This document shows positions 2,505 to 10,316 of a DNA stretch of 10,316 nt, piece by piece. The DNA is from an uncultured bacterium (GTDB lineage: Bacteria > Krumholzibacteriota > Krumholzibacteriia > Krumholzibacteriales > Krumholzibacteriaceae). A program made the translations under genes and the position numbers. The stretch is from NCBI GenBank assembly GCA_965371515.1, contig CBDUYR010000075.1, forward strand, positions 1 through 10,316. Direction: 5' to 3'. The notes under the pieces were generated by a model. It had not been told where the DNA came from and did no database searches. It worked only from the letters and a program-made list of their open reading frames with translations. How positions within the stretch are numbered: position 1 is the stretch's first letter; each line of letters opens with the position of its first letter.

Positions 2505-2519
2505 TGAGGAGTGTGTGAG

Positions 2520-3032
2520 ATGAAGCTGTTTACGCTGTTTACGATCGCCGCCCTCGCCATCGTCTTCTCCGGATGCGGAGGAGCAGGTATCGAAGGCAGG
2601 GGACCGAAGACTTACGAGAACGCCGGGCAGATCGTCTCGGAGGCGAAGGCCGGCGTTGACCGGATCGAGATAGACGCGTTCAAGGTGAAGATGGAAAGCG
2701 ACGATATGTTCGTCGTCATCGATGTCCGTGAGCCTGACGATTACTACGAGGACAGCATCCCGGGGTCGATCAACATCCCGCGCGGAATCCTCGAGTTCAA
2801 GATCGCCGACGAGAAGTACTGGGACAGCGAAGGGCTCTTTGCTCCCGGGAGGGATGAGGAGATCATTGTATATGGCCATAAGGTCGACCGAGGCGTTCTC
2901 GCGGCTGAGACTCTCGTGAAACTCGGCTATAAAAATGTGAAGCATCTCTACGGAGGGTGGATCGTGTGGACGGAGGGCCCTGAGGCTCTCGACGTAGAAG
3001 AGGTCGTTGAGGAAGGCGGATGCGGGGGTTAA
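2520..3032 (+). CDS. Rhodanese-domain lipoprotein lacking the active-loop Cys, with C-terminal GGCGG
   Basis: Start ATG 2520 after GAGGAG. Lipobox FSGC, rhodanese motifs IDVREPDDY..SIPGSINIPRGILE and LGYKNVKHLYGGW, active loop VYGHKVDRG, and C-terminus EEVVEEGGCGG*. Confidence 0.85.
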   Translation: MKLFTLFTIAALAIVFSGCGGAGIEGRGPKTYENAGQIVSEAKAGVDRIEIDAFKVKMESDDMFVVIDVREPDDYYEDSIPGSINIPRGILEFKIADEKYWDSEGLFAPGRDEEIIVYGHKVDRGVLAAETLVKLGYKNVKHLYGGWIVWTEGPEALDVEEVVEEGGCGG

Positions 3033-3206: not shown

Positions 3207-4175
3207 ATGAGTTCAAAGTACAGGTATATTCTGGTCCTGCTGGCCATAGCCGCGCTGTTTATCTCCGGCTGCAGCGAGGATTACACCTCTCCCGAGGATG
3301 GAACAAAGTCGGAGACATTGAGGAACTACCTTGTCGCCAACGACATGGACCTTCCCGATATGATCACCGACTGGCTCATTGGCGCCGACGTGGTGCACGG
3401 CAACGAGTCGACATATTATATAATCGATATCCGCGATGAGGGTGTTTACAACACGGGGCATGTACCCGGCGCCGTTAACACTACACTGGGCAACATTCTT
3501 GTCGAGGCGACCAATGCGGACGGCAAGCCGATCGTTGTTGTCTGCCTCACCGGTCAGGTCGCCGGCCACGCCGTGATAGCCCTCCGCCTAAGCGGATATT
3601 CCGACGCCATGGTGATGAAGTTCGGTATGAGCTCCTGGCACAGCGATTTCGACAGCTGGACAGCTAACACTGGTAACATCGCTTCCAGTCTTGAAAGCTG
3701 GATCGATCCTCCCGGCAATATCGCTGCCAGCACCGAGCATGACTATCCGTTGCTATCCGCCAGCGCGGCCGATGGTGCCGGTATCCTCGCCGAGCGCGTA
3801 TCCGCGATGCTCGCAGGCGGATTCAAGGGCATCAGTGCCTCCGACGTCCTTGCGGCGCCGTACGTATATTTTATCAACAACTACTGGGCCGCGAGCGATG
3901 TTACCACTTACGGGAACATCACAGGCGCCAGGAGGATCAATCCGATGGGTCTCGCAGACGGCTTTATCAAGTACAACGATTCCGGCGCTACCGTGGTCAC
4001 CTACTGCTGGACCGGCCAGACATCGTCGATGATAACCGCCTACCTGACGGTTCTCGGCTACAACGCCAAGAGCCTGAAGTACGGTGCAAACGCCATGATC
4101 TACGACGACCTGACGGCGCACAACTGGACAGGATCGTTCGATTACACGTATGAAGCGATTACGGCTCTTCAGTAG
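3207..4175 (+). CDS. Tandem two-domain rhodanese lipoprotein
   Basis: Lipobox ISGC, IIDIR...GHVPGAVN, and two Cys loops VVCLTGQVA (C113) and TYCWTGQTS (C267); RBS GGAGG at 3197-3201. Confidence 0.88.
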   Translation: MSSKYRYILVLLAIAALFISGCSEDYTSPEDGTKSETLRNYLVANDMDLPDMITDWLIGADVVHGNESTYYIIDIRDEGVYNTGHVPGAVNTTLGNILVEATNADGKPIVVVCLTGQVAGHAVIALRLSGYSDAMVMKFGMSSWHSDFDSWTANTGNIASSLESWIDPPGNIAASTEHDYPLLSASAADGAGILAERVSAMLAGGFKGISASDVLAAPYVYFINNYWAASDVTTYGNITGARRINPMGLADGFIKYNDSGATVVTYCWTGQTSSMITAYLTVLGYNAKSLKYGANAMIYDDLTAHNWTGSFDYTYEAITALQ

Positions 4176-4279: not shown

Positions 4280-5320
4280 ATGAAGTTTCTTTCACTTCTC
4301 TTACTCGGAATCGCTCTTCTTATTCCCGTCTCTTCCAATGCCCAGGGGTGTATGGAAGGCGGGTCAGATGAGGGAGTGAACGTGATTGGCTTCATCCAGC
4401 CGCAGTTCGACTGGTTAGATATAAACGACTCAAATAACAGCGATGCAAGCTTTGCGTTCAACAGGGCGAGGCTGGGAGTCACCGGCAGCGTTCCCTATGA
4501 TTTCAGCTACTACTTCATGATGGAGTTCAGTCCGAGATTTGATGATGCTCCCTACATGCTCGACGGATTTATAACCTACACGAGATTCGGGGATCCGGCG
4601 AAGTTCACCTTCGGTCAGTTCAAGCAGCCGTTCAGTCTTGAACGTAACATGCCCTGTCACGCTCTTTACACGATCAACAGATCGATGGTCGTCGAGCAGC
4701 TCGCGATGGACAGGGACATGGGGTTCATGTTTTTCGGTGATTATAAAAAGAAGGTCAGCTACAACCTGGCCGTCATGAACGGAACGGGACTAGGCATGCC
4801 CGACGACAACAACGCCAAGGACTGGGTCGGAAGAGTCGTTGTGACTCCCATGACCGGTATCGATATTGGCGGAGGCTTTCGATACGGTACATCCGCACCG
4901 AGCGTAGTGGATGCAGAAGAGGATACACATACACGTGGCGGCCTTGATCTCACGGTCACATACAAAGAATTCAAATTCTTTGCCGAGTATATCTACGGCA
5001 AGGACGAGGGTTCCTATACCGAGGGTGGTGGCTGTGGGGGGCCCGGCGAGATCGTCGAGGGTTCGAAGAAACGTAACGGTATGTACGCCATGCTCATATG
5101 GTCCACCAAGTGGAATCTGGAGCCTGTGTACAAGTATGAGTTCTTCGAGGAGGACATGGATATAACGGATAACACAAGGCATGGTCATACATTCGGATTG
5201 AACTATTACCCGAACGACTGGACCAGGCTTCAGGTCAACTATCTGCGCTGCATCGAGGAATTCCGGCCTGCGCTGAGAAACGACAAGCTCCTGGTCCAGA
5301 TGCAGATCAAGATCATGTAG
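4280..5320 (+). CDS. Outer-membrane porin, OprO/OprP (phosphate-selective porin)-like
   Basis: Signal peptide (SNA|Q), F.FNRARLGV.G, GQFKQPFSLE, TINRS, GLNYY and RLQVNY beta-strand motifs, amphipathic terminal strand LLVQMQIKIM; RBS AAAGGAG. Confidence 0.85.
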   Translation: MKFLSLLLLGIALLIPVSSNAQGCMEGGSDEGVNVIGFIQPQFDWLDINDSNNSDASFAFNRARLGVTGSVPYDFSYYFMMEFSPRFDDAPYMLDGFITYTRFGDPAKFTFGQFKQPFSLERNMPCHALYTINRSMVVEQLAMDRDMGFMFFGDYKKKVSYNLAVMNGTGLGMPDDNNAKDWVGRVVVTPMTGIDIGGGFRYGTSAPSVVDAEEDTHTRGGLDLTVTYKEFKFFAEYIYGKDEGSYTEGGGCGGPGEIVEGSKKRNGMYAMLIWSTKWNLEPVYKYEFFEEDMDITDNTRHGHTFGLNYYPNDWTRLQVNYLRCIEEFRPALRNDKLLVQMQIKIM

Positions 5321-6196: not shown

Positions 6197-6224
6197 TCTG
6201 TTGACCCTGAAAGGGGAACGTGAA

Positions 6225-6584
6225 ATGAGCAAGACAGCCATAACGATCAACGGCGCAGACGCCAAGAGCGTCTACCCGGCGATCATAATCGCGGTATCCT
6301 CCGCGGCGACGGGCGACGAAGTCGTCCTGTTCTTCTCGCCGTTCGGCGCACCGGTGATGGTGAAGGGCGCGTTCGAGAAGATGAACGAGGAGACCGAGCA
6401 TATGCCCGACCTCATTGAGATGATAGACGGGCTCAAGATGCTCGGCGCAAAATTTCTCGTATGTGAACTGGCGTTGGATTATCACGGAATCAAGGCAGAG
6501 GATTTTATAGAGGAAGCGGAAATCGTCGGCGCGACGACATTCGTCGGCGCTGTTCAGGGCGCCGAGCTGACGCTTTCTTTCTAG
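6225..6584 (+). CDS. DsrE/DsrF-like (DsrE2/DrsE-type) sulfur relay protein
   Basis: 119 aa from ATG 6225 (RBS AAGGGG): A..GDEVVLFF...GA, GAKFLVCELAL, IVGATTF...TLSF; single conserved Cys. Confidence 0.85.
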   Translation: MSKTAITINGADAKSVYPAIIIAVSSAATGDEVVLFFSPFGAPVMVKGAFEKMNEETEHMPDLIEMIDGLKMLGAKFLVCELALDYHGIKAEDFIEEAEIVGATTFVGAVQGAELTLSF

Positions 6585-6617
6585 GGTCCTGGAAACATCT
6601 ATCAAGGAGGATAGAAA

Positions 6618-6842
6618 ATGGCAACCGAGCAACTGGACGCTTTGGGACTTAAGTGCCCCCAGCCGATTCTCAAGGTCGTCGCTAAAATTCCGACGATGAC
6701 AGCGGGCGATATCCTCGAGGTTCTCGCAGATTGTCCTTCATTTCCGACGGATATGAAGGCCTGGTGCGAAAAGACCGGCAAGCCCCTTCTCATGCTCACG
6801 ACCGATGGAGAAGGCAAGCACACAGCTCAAATACAGGTATAA
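6618..6842 (+). CDS. tusA: Second TusA-family sulfur carrier protein
   Basis: LDALGLKCPQP, GDILEVLADCPSF..DMKAWC; RBS AAGGAGG. Confidence 0.9.
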   Translation: MATEQLDALGLKCPQPILKVVAKIPTMTAGDILEVLADCPSFPTDMKAWCEKTGKPLLMLTTDGEGKHTAQIQV

Positions 6843-6850
6843 ACGTCCAC

Positions 6851-6915
6851 CGGGGAGCGCTCGAACGAGACATTCACGCGGATATCTTACCTTACCGGGT
6901 GCTCCCTGACTTTTT
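6851..6915 (+). terminator. Long imperfect hairpin followed by a short U tract between tusA2 and mvhD (terminator, attenuator or mRNA-stabilising stem)
   Basis: CGGGGAGCGCTCG (6851-6863) pairs with CGGGTGCTCCCTG (6896-6908) allowing G-U; inner GAGACATTC/GGATATCTT extends it; followed by ACTTTTT. Confidence 0.45.
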
Positions 6916-6948
6916 CCGCCGGCTGTTCTGCTGGCAAACGAAACGGAT

Positions 6949-7383
6949 ATGACGGGCAAAGAAAAGGAATTCAGTCCGAACATCGTTGGATTTCTCTGCA
7001 ACTGGTGCACATACGCTGCGGCCGATCTTGCTGGTTCGACGAAACTCGAGATCTCACCGGCTTTCTCGGTGGTGAGGGTGATGTGCTCGAGCCGCGTCGA
7101 TCACAATCTTGTCCTGTCGACCTTCTTCGAAGGGGCGGATGGGGTACTGATCGCAGGCTGCCATCCTGGCGACTGTCATTACGGCAAGGGTAACTATTAT
7201 ACGAGGCGGCGTTACGCCCAGCTGAAGAAGGTCCTCGTGACCCTTGGTCTAGAACCGGAGAGGATCCGCCTCGTCTGGATATCGGCTGCAGAGGGAAAAA
7301 AGTATGCGGAAGTTATCAACAGTTTTACCGAGAAGATCAAGGAACTCGGGCCGAGCCCGATAAACAGCGATCAGCGTCTTTAA
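6949..7383 (+). CDS. mvhD: MvhD/FlpD-family [2Fe-2S] subunit
   Basis: IVGFLCNWCTYAAADLAG, RVMCSSRVD, GADGVLIAGCHPGDCHY.KGNY, GLEPERIRLVWISAAEG, LGPSP. Confidence 0.96.
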   Translation: MTGKEKEFSPNIVGFLCNWCTYAAADLAGSTKLEISPAFSVVRVMCSSRVDHNLVLSTFFEGADGVLIAGCHPGDCHYGKGNYYTRRRYAQLKKVLVTLGLEPERIRLVWISAAEGKKYAEVINSFTEKIKELGPSPINSDQRL

Positions 7384-7398
7384 AGAAGAGTGTGAGGG

Positions 7399-8724
7399 AT
7401 GAACAGGGATAGCGTTCTTGTAATCGGGGCGGGGCTTGCTGGGATGAAGGCCGGACTCCTTCTGGCCAACGCCGGGAAAAAGGTCTACCTCGTCGAGAAA
7501 CTTCCATTGATCGGTGGGATGGCGATAAAGGACGAGGAGAGCTTTCCCAATTTCGAATGTTCCACGTGCATGGTAGCGCCGATTCAGCAGGAGGTGCTGC
7601 AGCACCCTGACATCGAGACGATGACTCTGTCGACAGTCGAAAAGGTAGTGGGGGTCGTCGGCGATTTCAAGGTCACGATCATGAAGGCCGCTCGTTACGT
7701 AAGCATGACAGACTGCATCGGGTGTGGGATGTGTTACGAGCCGTGCCCCGTGTCGATCAGCAACGAGTGGGAAGAAGATCTGGGGGAGATGAAGGCGATA
7801 TACGTTCCCACGGCGGGTTCGCTTCCTAACGTACCGACCATAGACCCGCAGCATTGCATCAAGCTCAACGGAAGCGAGGAGTGCAATGCGTGCGCGGAGG
7901 CCTGCATGTTCGGTGCGATCAAGCTCGACGACAACGATGAAAAAATCGATGTCGAGGTCGCAGCGATAGTAGTTGCTACAGGCGCGGATATATACGACGT
8001 GTCGGGTCTCGAAGCTCTTGGATACGGTTCCTGCCCCGGGGTGTTTACGCCCCTCGAGTTCGAGAGGCTCTTTGCCTCCAACGGTCCGACGTCGGGTGAA
8101 CTGACGATCAGGGATACGGGAATCACACCGAGTAAGATAGCCATAATACATTGCGTTGGCAGGAAAGAGCAGGGTTACTGTTCTAGCGTCTGCTGCATGT
8201 ATTCGCTGAAGTTTGCTCACTTCCTCAAACAGAAACTTCCAGAAGCTCTTGTCAGAAATATCCACTCAGACATATGTGTGCATGACAAGACGTACCAGAA
8301 GTTCTTCGACGGAGTCAGGGGCACGGACACCGAGATGCTCTACTGCTCCTCAATAGAGAATATTTCCGTCTCAGCCAATGGTTCAGGGCTGAAGGTGAAG
8401 TACCCTGATGGGAAAGGGGACGAGCAGACCGTGGATGCCGACATGGTCATCCTGGCGGCGGCGATGGTTCCCGAAAAAGGATTGTCCGGTCTGGCCGAGC
8501 ACCTTGGAATAGAGCTTGATGGAAATGGATTTGTAAGGTCCCTCGAAGAGAATATCGGGTCGATCGAGACAACGATAGAAGGCATATTCATCGCAGGTTC
8601 GGTAGAGGGGCCAAAGGACATACAGACATCTGTGATACAGGCCGAGGCTGCGGCCGGAAAGGTCATGGCATGTCTCGATGCCATGCCGGAGGCGGAGATG
8701 GTCGAGTCAGGGACAGGTGAATAG
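7399..8724 (+). CDS. hdrA: HdrA-like FAD/Fe-S protein, short form (core plus inserted ferredoxin; no N-terminal domain, no C-terminal ferredoxin)
   Basis: VIGAGLAG FAD motif at the very N-terminus, FPNFECSTC, CIGCGMCYEPCP and CIKL..ECNACAEAC, LEFERL, HCVGR..YCSSVCCMYSLK, GPKDIQTSV.QA.AAA. Confidence 0.92.
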   Translation: MNRDSVLVIGAGLAGMKAGLLLANAGKKVYLVEKLPLIGGMAIKDEESFPNFECSTCMVAPIQQEVLQHPDIETMTLSTVEKVVGVVGDFKVTIMKAARYVSMTDCIGCGMCYEPCPVSISNEWEEDLGEMKAIYVPTAGSLPNVPTIDPQHCIKLNGSEECNACAEACMFGAIKLDDNDEKIDVEVAAIVVATGADIYDVSGLEALGYGSCPGVFTPLEFERLFASNGPTSGELTIRDTGITPSKIAIIHCVGRKEQGYCSSVCCMYSLKFAHFLKQKLPEALVRNIHSDICVHDKTYQKFFDGVRGTDTEMLYCSSIENISVSANGSGLKVKYPDGKGDEQTVDADMVILAAAMVPEKGLSGLAEHLGIELDGNGFVRSLEENIGSIETTIEGIFIAGSVEGPKDIQTSVIQAEAAAGKVMACLDAMPEAEMVESGTGE

Positions 8725-10316
8725 ATGAAAGCTAAAGTCGGCATATATATCTGCGAGTGCGGGCCCAACATCTCCGAGAGAGTAGACATCCCGAAGATCA
8801 GCGAGGAACTCCTCTCATCTGGTCGGTACGACGATGTAGAGCTGATAGTGAAGAATTACGGCCTGCTCTGCTCGGGTGACGGCAAGACATTCCTCGAGGA
8901 AGAGATAAAGGAGAACGGCTTCACCCACCTCGTGATAGCCGCCTGTTCTCCTAGAGATCACAACAAGACCTTCATCAATGTCTGCAAGCAGACCGATCTG
9001 AACCCTTATCTATATAAGCTCGTCAATATACGCGAGCACTGTGCCTGGATCATCCCGGACAAGGAGGAGGCATCCAGAAAGGCCATCCAGTACATACACG
9101 GTGGCATAAAGAGGGTGCTTTACCAGTCACAGCTTCTGGAAAAGCAGATCGATATCACGCCGGACGTGCTCGTGCTCGGCGGCGGGATCGCCGGGATGGA
9201 GGCGGCTCTCTCCCTGGCGGGGGAGCAGAGAAGGGTCTACCTGGTGGAGAGATCCGAGGAGTTGGGAGGCGTTTCCGCCGGTTTCAGCAGGTTGCTTCCG
9301 AGGCAGGGAGGAGATACGGGGAAGATCCGCTCTCGTCGCGAAGAAGTTGAAAAGAACGAGAACATAAGGGTATTCAGGAACTCGGAGCTGACCAGGGTCG
9401 TCGGATTCCTCGGCAACTACGAGGTTGTTGTAGAGTCACGCAGCGAAGGGAACCCGGTAGATCTGGTGGTCGGGGCGATAATTGTCGCCACGGGCTTCAG
9501 GCTCGCCAAGCTGGGAGAGATCGCGGGTTTCGATTATTCCGACGACGACGAGGTATACACCTCACTCGAGATCGAGAGGATGGTCGCGAACGGCGACGGG
9601 GTGAGAATGAGGAACGGGGAAGAGCCGAAATCGATAGCGCTCGTTCACTGTGCCGGTCGCAAAGAGAAGGGTTACTGCTCACAGATATGCTGCAATTACA
9701 TGATGAAGATAGCCAGCTATATAAAGGATCAGTCGGCGGACATAGATGTAGCGGAGTATTTTAAGGGCCTCTGTCTTCCACACAAGGAGGACCAGAAGTT
9801 CCAGGAGAGCGTTGCTCAGACTGGAGTCGATTTCAGGAGATCTGAGTCGATCGGCATCATGGGAACGACGGTCGTGTCGGTGGGGATGGATAGTGAAGAG
9901 TCTAAGCAGAAGTTCGACATGGTTATAGTCGCTCCGGCAATGGAGCCGGCAGGGGGGACCGAGGCTCTTGCAGAGCTTCTCGAACTTCCCCTCCACGAAA
10001 CAGGTTTCTTCGAGGAAGCCCACCAGTCGATAAATCCGACGGGGACTACTACTGATGGAATGTTCGTGATAGGCGCGGCGCAGGGTCCGAGAGGGATCAG
10101 CTCATCGATGCTCTTTGCCCAGGCGGCGGCAGGCGAGATTGCCACTCAACTCATCCCTGGACAGAAGATCACTCCAGAGGTAAAGGTTTCCGAGATCCTC
10201 GAGGCTTACTGCACAGGGTGCATGACATGTCTCGAGGTCTGCGCTTACGGAGCTATTTATTTCGATGATGACAAGGCGATATCAGTGGTCAACGAGGCCA
10301 TATGCCGGGGATGCGG
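8725..10316 (+). CDS. hdrA: Second HdrA-like FAD/Fe-S protein (N-terminal domain, core and C-terminal ferredoxin), 3'-truncated by the window
   Basis: Manually translated open frame of 530 codons from ATG 8725: MKAKVGIYICECGPNI, LLCS, AACSPRDH, LNPYL..VNIREHCAW, VLGGGIAG, LEIERM, HCAGR..YCSQICCNYMMK, GPRGI, CTGCMTCLEVCAY, ICRGC. Missing from the ORF track because there is no stop in the window. Confidence 0.93.
   Translation, partial: MKAKVGIYICECGPNISERVDIPKISEELLSSGRYDDVELIVKNYGLLCSGDGKTFLEEEIKENGFTHLVIAACSPRDHNKTFINVCKQTDLNPYLYKLVNIREHCAWIIPDKEEASRKAIQYIHGGIKRVLYQSQLLEKQIDITPDVLVLGGGIAGMEAALSLAGEQRRVYLVERSEELGGVSAGFSRLLPRQGGDTGKIRSRREEVEKNENIRVFRNSELTRVVGFLGNYEVVVESRSEGNPVDLVVGAIIVATGFRLAKLGEIAGFDYSDDDEVYTSLEIERMVANGDGVRMRNGEEPKSIALVHCAGRKEKGYCSQICCNYMMKIASYIKDQSADIDVAEYFKGLCLPHKEDQKFQESVAQTGVDFRRSESIGIMGTTVVSVGMDSEESKQKFDMVIVAPAMEPAGGTEALAELLELPLHETGFFEEAHQSINPTGTTTDGMFVIGAAQGPRGISSSMLFAQAAAGEIATQLIPGQKITPEVKVSEILEAYCTGCMTCLEVCAYGAIYFDDDKAISVVNEAICRGC

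Follow-up and report, generated by a model that had tools for sequence, protein, structure and literature searches.

The crossing of the outer membrane by insoluble or reactive sulfur (S8, polysulfide) is an open question, for which the porin subfamily described here is a concrete and testable candidate. The stretch of DNA analysed, referred to as the window, is one entire contig of 10,316 bases (CBDUYR010000075.1 of assembly GCA_965371515.1) from the 3.08 Mb, 99.6% complete genome of an uncultured bacterium whose nearest relatives are labelled Krumholzibacteriota; every long gene of the window lies on the + strand. Among these is the gene of a porin of the OprO/OprP family, flanked by rhodanese genes. 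A preliminary description of the same letters had interpreted the cysteines of this porin as a thiol relay, in which a flexible loop Cys attacks extracellular elemental sulfur (S0) or polysulfide and passes it, via a lumenal Cys and the periplasmic N-terminal Cys, to the rhodaneses. What, then, are these cysteines for? The explanation that we prefer, and to which we would give an even chance, is that the protein is a sulfur-uptake porin with chemically active cysteines, serving as an outer-membrane entry for reduced sulfur compounds; the substrate is likely to be polysulfide or sulfane sulfur derived from S0, and possibly thiosulfate. The parts of the porin that bear on this question are as follows.

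4280-5320, + strand: porin of the OprO/OprP family (Pfam Porin_O_P), three-Cys subfamily, 346 amino acids, stop codon included
4280-4342, + strand: signal peptide, residues 1-21, ending SNA in the sequence, with a predicted signal peptidase I cleavage
4343-4375, + strand: N-terminal tether QGCMEGGSDEG with Q22, G23 and C24, predicted to be periplasmic and flexible
4349-4351, + strand: codon of C24, from the sequence
4625-4711, + strand: loop 3, the constriction loop, residues 116-144, with the invariant C126 and R134, from the model secondary structure and the OprP alignment
4655-4657, + strand: codon of C126, in MPCH, from the sequence
4970-5101, + strand: long beta11-beta12 hairpin, residues 231-274, whose tip is loop 6 (249-256) with GGGCGG and C252, from the model
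5033-5035, + strand: codon of C252 (TGT), from the sequence
5249-5251, + strand: codon of C324, in strand 15, unconserved and outside the feature, from the sequence and homologues

As had been claimed, the open reading frame contains four Cys, at residues 24, 126, 252 and 324, and the EGGGCGG motif does lie at 5021-5041. Conservation separates the four: in the best 120 of 746 homologues (45-93% identity) C24, C126 and C252 are Cys in 120/120 and C324 is Cys in 16/120, so that three of the residues to which the preliminary description drew attention are conserved and the fourth, C324, is not. At the genome level, 80 loci were kept from 466 confirmed relatives; C24 and C126 are present in all 80, and position 252 is either Cys or an in-frame TGA in all 80. 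An exhaustive search of 1.84 billion cluster representatives (50% identity clusters) showed a break in the scores. Every full-length representative scoring 214 bits or more (16 in all) carries the three Cys, while at 157 bits or less none of these Cys is found at the positions in question and a gap takes the place of the GGGC loop; the single exception, P0144 (157 bits), has the loop GACCAPP, yet no Cys at 24 or 126. Judged from these alignments, a single clade within Porin_O_P is marked jointly by its QGC N-terminus, its loop-3 Cys and a Gly-rich insertion in loop 6, and by the same measure the invariance of the porin Cys is more than chance. A failure of the Cys to be conserved in homologues had been named as a sign against the relay; what was found is three invariant Cys.

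An indication of the kind of chemistry involved comes from position 252, which is Cys in 69/80 loci and an in-frame TGA in the other 11. In each of these loci the one in-frame TGA falls precisely on codon 252 (e.g. GGG-TGA-GDDP), with no other stop and no other loop Cys. A hairpin of 5-6 bp with a 4-nt NGGU loop, placed 13-14 nt past the TGA, is present in 8/11 TGA forms versus 0/69 Cys forms (looser 6-nt loops occur in 4/69 of the latter), and compensatory changes are seen at 2 of the 6 stem pairs among nine aligned TGA forms. The selB gene (TIGR00475) scores above its curated cut-off in 4/5 TGA genomes, the fifth having it divided between two contigs; of 14 control genomes, two are above the cut-off. 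In several cluster representatives from metagenomes the sequence stops near residue 251, in ...GG or ...GGG, as would be expected if gene callers had stopped at the TGA. From the TGA, the hairpin and selB, selenocysteine (Sec) is therefore the candidate replacement of C252 in some lineages. Reading TGA as the sense codon of an altered genetic code was considered and rejected, given that each gene has a single TGA, confined to one position, that MvhD has a TGA as well and that selB is present. MvhD, which is encoded further downstream and which we take to be a known selenoprotein, has, in 4/80 loci (L025, L026, L031 and L039), a TGA in place of the window's Cys71; three of these four also have a TGA porin, and L026 has the Cys-form porin. 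Two MvhD copies bear TGA in L026 and likewise in L031.

A quick maximum-likelihood tree of 81 rows, with support from the Shimodaira-Hasegawa-like approximate likelihood ratio test only, requires three changes between Cys and Sec, and at least two of them are forced by well-supported branches, one in a Cloacimonadota clade (nine TGA rows) and one in Bacteroidales. Sec/Cys pairs generally mark catalytic redox Cys. Sec has been reported to evolve from redox-active Cys and to be found in the active sites of oxidoreductases (PMC1794560). Since C252 exchanges with Sec at least twice independently, a purely structural disulfide role is unlikely for this residue. Structural disulfides were the other fate of the Cys that the preliminary description had weighed against its own proposal, and here too the genome points the other way: DsbA, DsbB and VKOR, the enzymes linked to envelope disulfides, have no family match in the window's genome at its 99.6% completeness, and this argues against permanent structural disulfides.

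The third line of evidence is the company that the porin keeps. The remaining genes of the window are listed here.

471-779, + strand: ArsR/SmtB-family regulator (Pfam HTH_5), at the head of the cluster
991-1224, + strand: TusA (Pfam TusA, 94 bits)
1293-2504, + strand: YeeE/YedE inner-membrane sulfur transporter (Pfam Sulf_transp, 163.9 bits)
2511-3032, + strand: RhdLipoA, a single-rhodanese-like lipoprotein (Pfam Rhodanese) with the C-terminal arm EEGGCGG at 3015-3029
3207-4175, + strand: RhdLipoB, a lipoprotein with two rhodanese domains (Pfam Rhodanese, two stretches) and active-site C113 and C267
5333-6196, + strand: Rhd2dom, an exported two-domain rhodanese (Pfam Rhodanese, 120.3 bits) with active-site C246
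about 6222-6584, + strand: DsrE-like protein (Pfam)
6618-6842, + strand: second TusA (Pfam)
6949-7383, + strand: MvhD (Pfam)
7399-8724, + strand: first HdrA-like flavoprotein (Pfam)
8725-10314, + strand: second HdrA-like flavoprotein (Pfam), continuing past the contig end

It is clear that the two rhodaneses next to the porin are the fixed part of this arrangement. In all 78 loci with upstream DNA the end of an RhdLipoB homologue lies no more than 500 nt upstream of the porin, and in 71 of the 78 with downstream DNA an Rhd2dom homologue begins at most 500 nt downstream. Their active-site Cys are kept almost throughout (RhdLipoB C113 in 75/76 and C267 in 76/76, Rhd2dom C246 in 73/74). The other partners vary, with YeeE at 21, HdrA at 18, DsrE at 12 and RhdLipoA at 46 of the 80 loci. 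A sulfur context is nevertheless found at essentially every locus, which is the reverse of the unrelated gene contexts that had been named as a sign against the relay.

The preliminary description had also noted that the Cys motif of the porin matches the tail of the lipoprotein two genes upstream, and this was borne out, GGCGG being common to the porin loop and to the EEGGCGG end of RhdLipoA. The C-terminus of RhdLipoA has a Gly-flanked Cys in 39/50 homologues and reads GG-TGA-Asp-stop in 6/50 (L016, L021, L024, L025, L039 and L080), followed in the latter by a 6-bp palindromic hairpin; these six are candidate selenocysteine tails. Joint folding of the six gave a weak consensus of -0.34 kcal/mol, the two tail types being one base out of register, and each type alone has a perfect 6-bp palindromic stem. 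Five homologues without the tail are a second, non-lipoprotein paralogue. In the window's clade (7/50 homologues plus the window itself) the rhodanese active-site residue of RhdLipoA is Gly, and therefore the tail Cys is the only candidate carrier of this protein.

The two lipoproteins also appear to differ in location. Two or more acidic residues are found at +2 to +6 after the lipid Cys in 51/70 RhdLipoB homologues versus 2/44 RhdLipoA homologues; the stretch is SED in the window and typically KDD, KED or SDK..D elsewhere. Since this resembles the export signal of Bacteroidetes lipoproteins, reported as K-(D/E)2 or SDDDD (PMC5080379), RhdLipoB is predicted from its sequence to be surface-exposed and RhdLipoA to face the periplasm. 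A predicted complex of porin residues 22-346 with RhdLipoB residues 23-322 scored 0.00 in two runs, which speaks neither for nor against binding.

Further inward the modules attached to this core change with the lineage. Genes 6222-10314 are a cytoplasmic sulfur-carrier and flavin/iron-sulfur module, whose order DsrE-TusA-MvhD-HdrA-HdrA recurs in loci of Krumholzibacteriota, KSB1, Neomarinimicrobiota, Eisenbacteria and Cloacimonadota, and YeeE-TusA (991-2504) is predicted to be the next step inward after the porin system. In locus L003 (16190-21041) the two HdrA genes are followed by a pair of 4Fe-4S proteins resembling FrhB/FdhB and by another MvhD-HdrA-HdrA set; since relatives extend beyond the HdrA pair in this way, the window contig truncates a larger cytoplasmic flavin/iron-sulfur cluster. 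Among NCBIfam models the regulator at 471-779 matches HTH_metalloreg (88.9 bits) and, at 56.4 bits against a cut-off of 155, BigR. With its two Cys and this weak match to a sulfite-sensing model, it may sense sulfur species and not metals.

No protein of a cytochrome c family was matched among the 12 window proteins in the Pfam scan. A Psr/Phs-like set (molybdopterin subunit, 4Fe-4S subunit and NrfD) lies within 10 kb of the porin in 12/80 loci, all with Bacteroidota labels. In Prolixibacteraceae such a Psr/Phs-like oxidoreductase, 4Fe-4S protein and NrfD come after the rhodanese-porin-rhodanese cassette (L030 12018-15835; also L017, L023, L032, L033, L035, L053 and others). Immediately upstream of the cassette, a Crp-family regulator, a Cytochrome_cB (PF11783) multihaem cytochrome some 530 amino acids long and a cytochrome b were found in 8 of 14 sampled Bacteroidota loci, in a scan that covered 71 of 126 candidate open reading frames from 12 of the 14 selected loci. 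These eight sets are in L014 (4781-8425), L034 (4432-8257), L058, L037, L027, L029, L042 and L049, and the cytochrome b561 is often fused to PAS.

The family is distributed over several phyla around Bacteroidota that are rich in anaerobes. Within the window's phylum the porin was found in 5/121 sampled genomes, the window's included, all of one family, and in none of three genomes of the same genus; this patchiness suggests an accessory, possibly transferred, module. Some Bacteroidales loci have a second Porin_O_P paralogue after Rhd2dom (L071 12200-13294; L052 2674-3078), which has 32% identity and one Cys and is without the three conserved Cys.

Where the cysteines lie can be judged from the fold. 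The porin scores 63.3 bits on Pfam Porin_O_P (PF07396), against a gathering cut-off of 20.9 (E 3.2e-17). An AlphaFold2 model from a 79-row alignment has 16 strands, with a predicted local distance difference test score (pLDDT) of 88.1 and a predicted template modelling score (pTM) of 0.82; for the mature porin the values are 90.9 and 0.88. Foldseek ranks OprP (2o4v_A, E 1.9e-14, TMq 0.73) and OprO (4rjw) highest, and when the family profile was compared with the sequences of the PDB at E up to 1, OprP and OprO were the sole matches, represented by three distinct sequences. On the strength of these models the protein is a 16-stranded outer-membrane barrel of the OprO/OprP type. In standard porin topology both termini are periplasmic and the odd connections extracellular. 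C252 would then be in the extracellular loop 6, at the tip of a hairpin whose modelled strands are 231-248 and 257-274, and C24 on a flexible periplasmic tether. Loop 3 (116-144) includes a short helix in the models and, from the alignment to OprP, is inferred to fold into the pore. The profile alignment sets C126 on S125 of OprP, R134 on R133 and R62 on R60, which would place C126 on the constriction loop at the central binding site. The three locations that the preliminary description had raised as questions are thus all predicted as it had supposed. The central phosphate site of OprP is given as D94, Y62, S124, S125, K121, K126, R34 and R133 (PMC5877670); since R34, Y62, K121 and K126 are replaced, the constriction of this porin appears to be of an anion type but not a phosphate site, with a thiol in place of the OprP hydroxyl.

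The N-terminal Cys needs separate comment. QGCMEGG follows directly on a signal peptide ending in SNA, and therefore the predicted mature porin begins with the codon at 4343; C24 is its third residue, on an acidic Gly-rich stretch. Across homologues Q22 and C24 are invariant, G23 is kept in at least 90%, and the residue preceding QGC is A, G or S. A lipid-modified C24 was considered and rejected, as six polar residues part it from the hydrophobic core; lipidation is also disfavoured in that A, G or S before the invariant Gln would fit signal peptidase I, and an invariant Gln at -2 is not lipobox-like. The tether has a pLDDT below 50 in both models, and modelling of the mature form did not dock it. 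VhChiP chitoporin, which is among the fold matches of the porin, has an N-terminal segment that plugs its pore from the periplasmic side.

The same fold supports the alternative that survives best, although we consider it unlikely: the porin may be a passive channel with anion selectivity, admitting thiosulfate, polysulfide or tetrathionate, through which the substrate diffuses as in OprP, with Cys that are structural or bind non-covalently and rhodaneses that do the chemistry. Its fold and family are those of OprP/OprO, and arginines are kept at positions of the OprP ladder and site (R62 on R60, R134 on R133). Furthermore, OprO/P-like porins beside ttr-like genes have been proposed in PMC13490349 as plain import channels, and ExtI, the nearest named relative, is described as having one Cys only (PMC5877670). 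A plain channel would, however, leave unexplained both why three Cys are invariant in a family that is otherwise 45% identical and why Sec appears at 252, at least twice and with its own hairpin; and for structural disulfides the genome offers no Dsb or VKOR match.

Returning to a sulfur-uptake porin with chemically active Cys, the following mechanism can be proposed. RhdLipoB would sit on the cell surface beside the pore. The nucleophile would be Cys252, or Sec in some lineages, flanked by Gly at the loop-6 tip; it would open S-S bonds of extracellular polysulfide or S8, or accept sulfane sulfur from RhdLipoB, and would in either case become a persulfide. Sulfur would then move inward past Cys126 at the central anion-binding site, bound as a persulfide or else set free as a polysulfide anion that the conserved arginines would guide, and would be taken over by the Cys24 tether, the Gly-flanked Cys arm of RhdLipoA and the periplasmic Rhd2dom. 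In the window's organism YeeE and TusA would carry it into the cytoplasm for the DsrE/TusA/HdrA-MvhD module. It is doubtful that the porin is catalytic in the full sense of a three-station covalent relay, running from the extracellular Cys/Sec loop to the constriction Cys and on to the periplasmic N-terminal Cys; equally tentative is the corollary of that relay, that the surface rhodanese feeds the porin and the periplasmic rhodaneses empty it. The thiol-relay interpretation of the preliminary description is thus partly supported, and at the level of sequence none of the contrary findings that it had named was encountered.

A number of observations weigh against this proposal in whole or in part. 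With regard to selenocysteine, two Bacteroidales TGA loci, L041 and L043, are without the NGGU hairpin and have a different hairpin there, L020 has the NGGU loop on a stem of 4 bp only, which is under the 5-bp test, and a search of three TGA loci against Rfam at E up to 1 found no family of selenocysteine insertion sequences, the lone match being weak and unrelated. Further, the window's own positions are all Cys (252 is TGT) and the evidence for Sec comes from relatives only; the window's own genome has selB, yet uses TGT at porin 252 and Cys at MvhD 71. Seven of the 78 loci have no Rhd2dom directly downstream (L041, L043, L045, L049, L056, L073 and L076). The geometry is also demanding: C252, at the tip of a long hairpin, may be far from C126, and the reach of the tether into the pore, at a pLDDT below 50, is a guess. 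The rule for the export signal was established for Bacteroidota, and its use in the window's phylum is an extrapolation by analogy. YeeE is below the cut-off both for the thiosulfate transporter TsuA and for the selenium-linked YedE/FdhT model. Finally, selD is present in 4/5 Bacteroidota genomes with the Cys form, a count that does not discriminate between the readings and with which a selenium role remains compatible.

Such a role would mean that the porin is an entry for selenium, the porin and rhodaneses capturing selenite, selenide or Se0 for the synthesis of selenoproteins or selenouridine or for detoxification, as proposed for ExtI of Geobacter; we regard this as improbable. It is true that the sole NCBIfam match of the porin is porin_ExtI, the porin of a selenite/tellurite operon, that the best NCBIfam score of YeeE is to the selenium-linked YedE/FdhT (114.4 bits, below the cut-off of 350), that selB is in the window's own genome and selD in 4/5 of the Bacteroidota carriers tested, and that ExtI is reported to affect the reduction of selenite and tellurite (PMC5877670). 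The porin, however, scores 36.7 against the 150 required on the ExtI model, and the ExtI cluster itself is now assigned, in PMC13510729, to polysulfide respiration through MccSep. Moreover, the attached modules are of a sulfur type (TusA, DsrE and HdrA; Psr-like molybdoenzymes with NrfD; multihaem cytochromes), and one carrier, G129, is without selD above the cut-off.

Alternatively, the Cys may carry no substrate at all and form a redox-gated channel or sensor, in which a reversible disulfide or selenenylsulfide opens or closes the pore according to external redox state or sulfide. Reactive residues that are odd in number and lie on a mobile loop, at the constriction and on a mobile N-terminus would suit such a device, and Sec is typical of fast thiol/disulfide-like exchange, to go by a title cited in PMC13510729. 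A gate would nevertheless have no need of a fixed pairing with three rhodaneses, and the occurrence of the same Gly-Cys/Sec-Gly motif on the carrier-type C-terminal arm of the neighbouring lipoprotein points to transfer chemistry; we give this reading little chance. A thiophilic metal or metalloid site (Hg, Cu, As or Zn), bound by the three thiolates during uptake or exclusion under ArsR/SmtB control, is very improbable: an ArsR/SmtB regulator heads the cluster and the three thiols are invariant, but no metal transporter, reductase or chaperone was found in the window by the Pfam scan, the conserved partners are rhodaneses and sulfur carriers, and the ArsR family includes sulfur sensors, to one of which, BigR, the regulator has its weak match.

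In the open-access literature searched, no paper was found on a Cys/Sec subfamily of Porin_O_P. The main text of a 2026 review of the prokaryotic selenoproteome does not contain the word porin (PMC13188914); the same review lists an outer-membrane barrel selenoprotein of the MtrB/PioB family, and a TonB-dependent receptor is given as a new selenoprotein in the deep-Sep paper (PMC12013277). The supplements of both papers may list more families. Therefore predicted outer-membrane selenoproteins are not new as such, and a Porin_O_P member would probably be a new entry in that review. As regards sulfur, polysulfide transport across the outer membrane of Geobacter "has not been elucidated" in the words of PMC13510729; PMC10045233 states that true S0 transport proteins have not been identified in Sulfurovum and acidophiles; and PMC13490349 says of sulfur disproportionators that their porins, or sulfurtransferases in the outer membrane, "have yet to be identified". 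The merits of the present candidate are that invariance and the exchange of Cys with Sec point out its reactive residues, that its rhodanese partners are fixed and that it is spread over several phyla around Bacteroidota; the porin is also present in cultured Draconibacterium and Maribellus strains, in which mutants are possible, namely Draconibacterium aestuarii Z1-6 (L030), Maribellus sediminis Y2-1-60 (L068) and Maribellus sp. CM-23 (L019). If the covalent relay is real, the protein would be the long-sought thiol-bearing outer-membrane protein for sulfur activation and the first diffusion-type porin to use covalent chemistry, in some lineages that of selenium, for substrate uptake.

The closest known system is ExtI/ExtH of Geobacter sulfurreducens, beside the Sec polysulfide reductase MccSep (ExtKL). 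A study by Jahan et al. (2019), to judge by its title, reportedly deals with ExtI and the localisation of ExtH. The two systems share a Porin_O_P porin beside a rhodanese-like lipoprotein in a cluster for sulfur or selenium respiration (PMC5877670, PMC13510729), and RhdLipoB upstream in 78/78 loci gives the porin the ExtI-type context of a rhodanese-like lipoprotein neighbour. The only NCBIfam model matched by the porin is nevertheless porin_ExtI (NF040900) at 36.7 bits, against a curated cut-off of 150, and it is therefore not an ExtI equivalog; on the ExtH model (cut-off 200) Rhd2dom scores 57.9 and RhdLipoA 19.9, and RhdLipoB has no match. ExtI is described as having one Cys (PMC5877670), whereas the window's subfamily has three invariant Cys of which one exchanges with Sec. 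The window is without multihaem cytochromes, unlike the ExtKL (MccSep) cluster, although some Bacteroidota relatives have one upstream. Sec itself is in the reductase in Geobacter, and in the window's relatives it would be in the porin and the rhodanese tail.

The OprP and OprO porins from Pseudomonas aeruginosa (2o4v and 4rjw; phosphate- and diphosphate-selective) belong to the same Pfam family, have the same 16-strand fold and likewise have a loop 3 that lines the constriction. At about 16% identity R60 (R62 here), R133 (R134) and D94 (near D95) are kept, and R34 is changed to F38, Y62 to R64, K121 to L, S125 to C126 and K126 to H, so that the central phosphate site and the arginine ladder are kept only in part. 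The context differs as well: instead of phosphate-uptake genes the neighbours are rhodaneses, YeeE, TusA, DsrE and HdrA, with sulfur genes across the 80 loci. Other members of Porin_O_P have neither the GGGC loop 6 nor the QGC N-terminus.

Other systems offer parallels of mechanism. SoxY has a C-terminal GGCGG arm, the motif that ends RhdLipoA and sits in porin loop 6, and the Cys of this arm is reported to bind the sulfur substrate covalently (PMC6067878); unlike SoxY, the candidate carriers here have no SoxY domain and are a rhodanese-domain lipoprotein (Pfam: Rhodanese only) and a barrel loop. For Acidithiobacillus and Acidiphilium it has been proposed that reactive thiols on an outer-membrane protein bind extracellular S0, forming a persulfide, and hand it on to the periplasm (PMC10045233). 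That proposal concerns aerobic acidophilic Proteobacteria and names no protein family, whereas the window's family is found in anaerobe-rich phyla around Bacteroidota. SusCD-like and BtuBG pairs of Bacteroidota likewise have the gene of an acidic export-type lipoprotein directly beside that of an outer-membrane barrel; unlike the SusCD type, the barrel here is a 16-strand diffusion porin and not a 22-strand TonB-dependent transporter. By analogy, the porin system may thus work like the SoxY carriers and the SusCD-type pairs, while being a member of neither.

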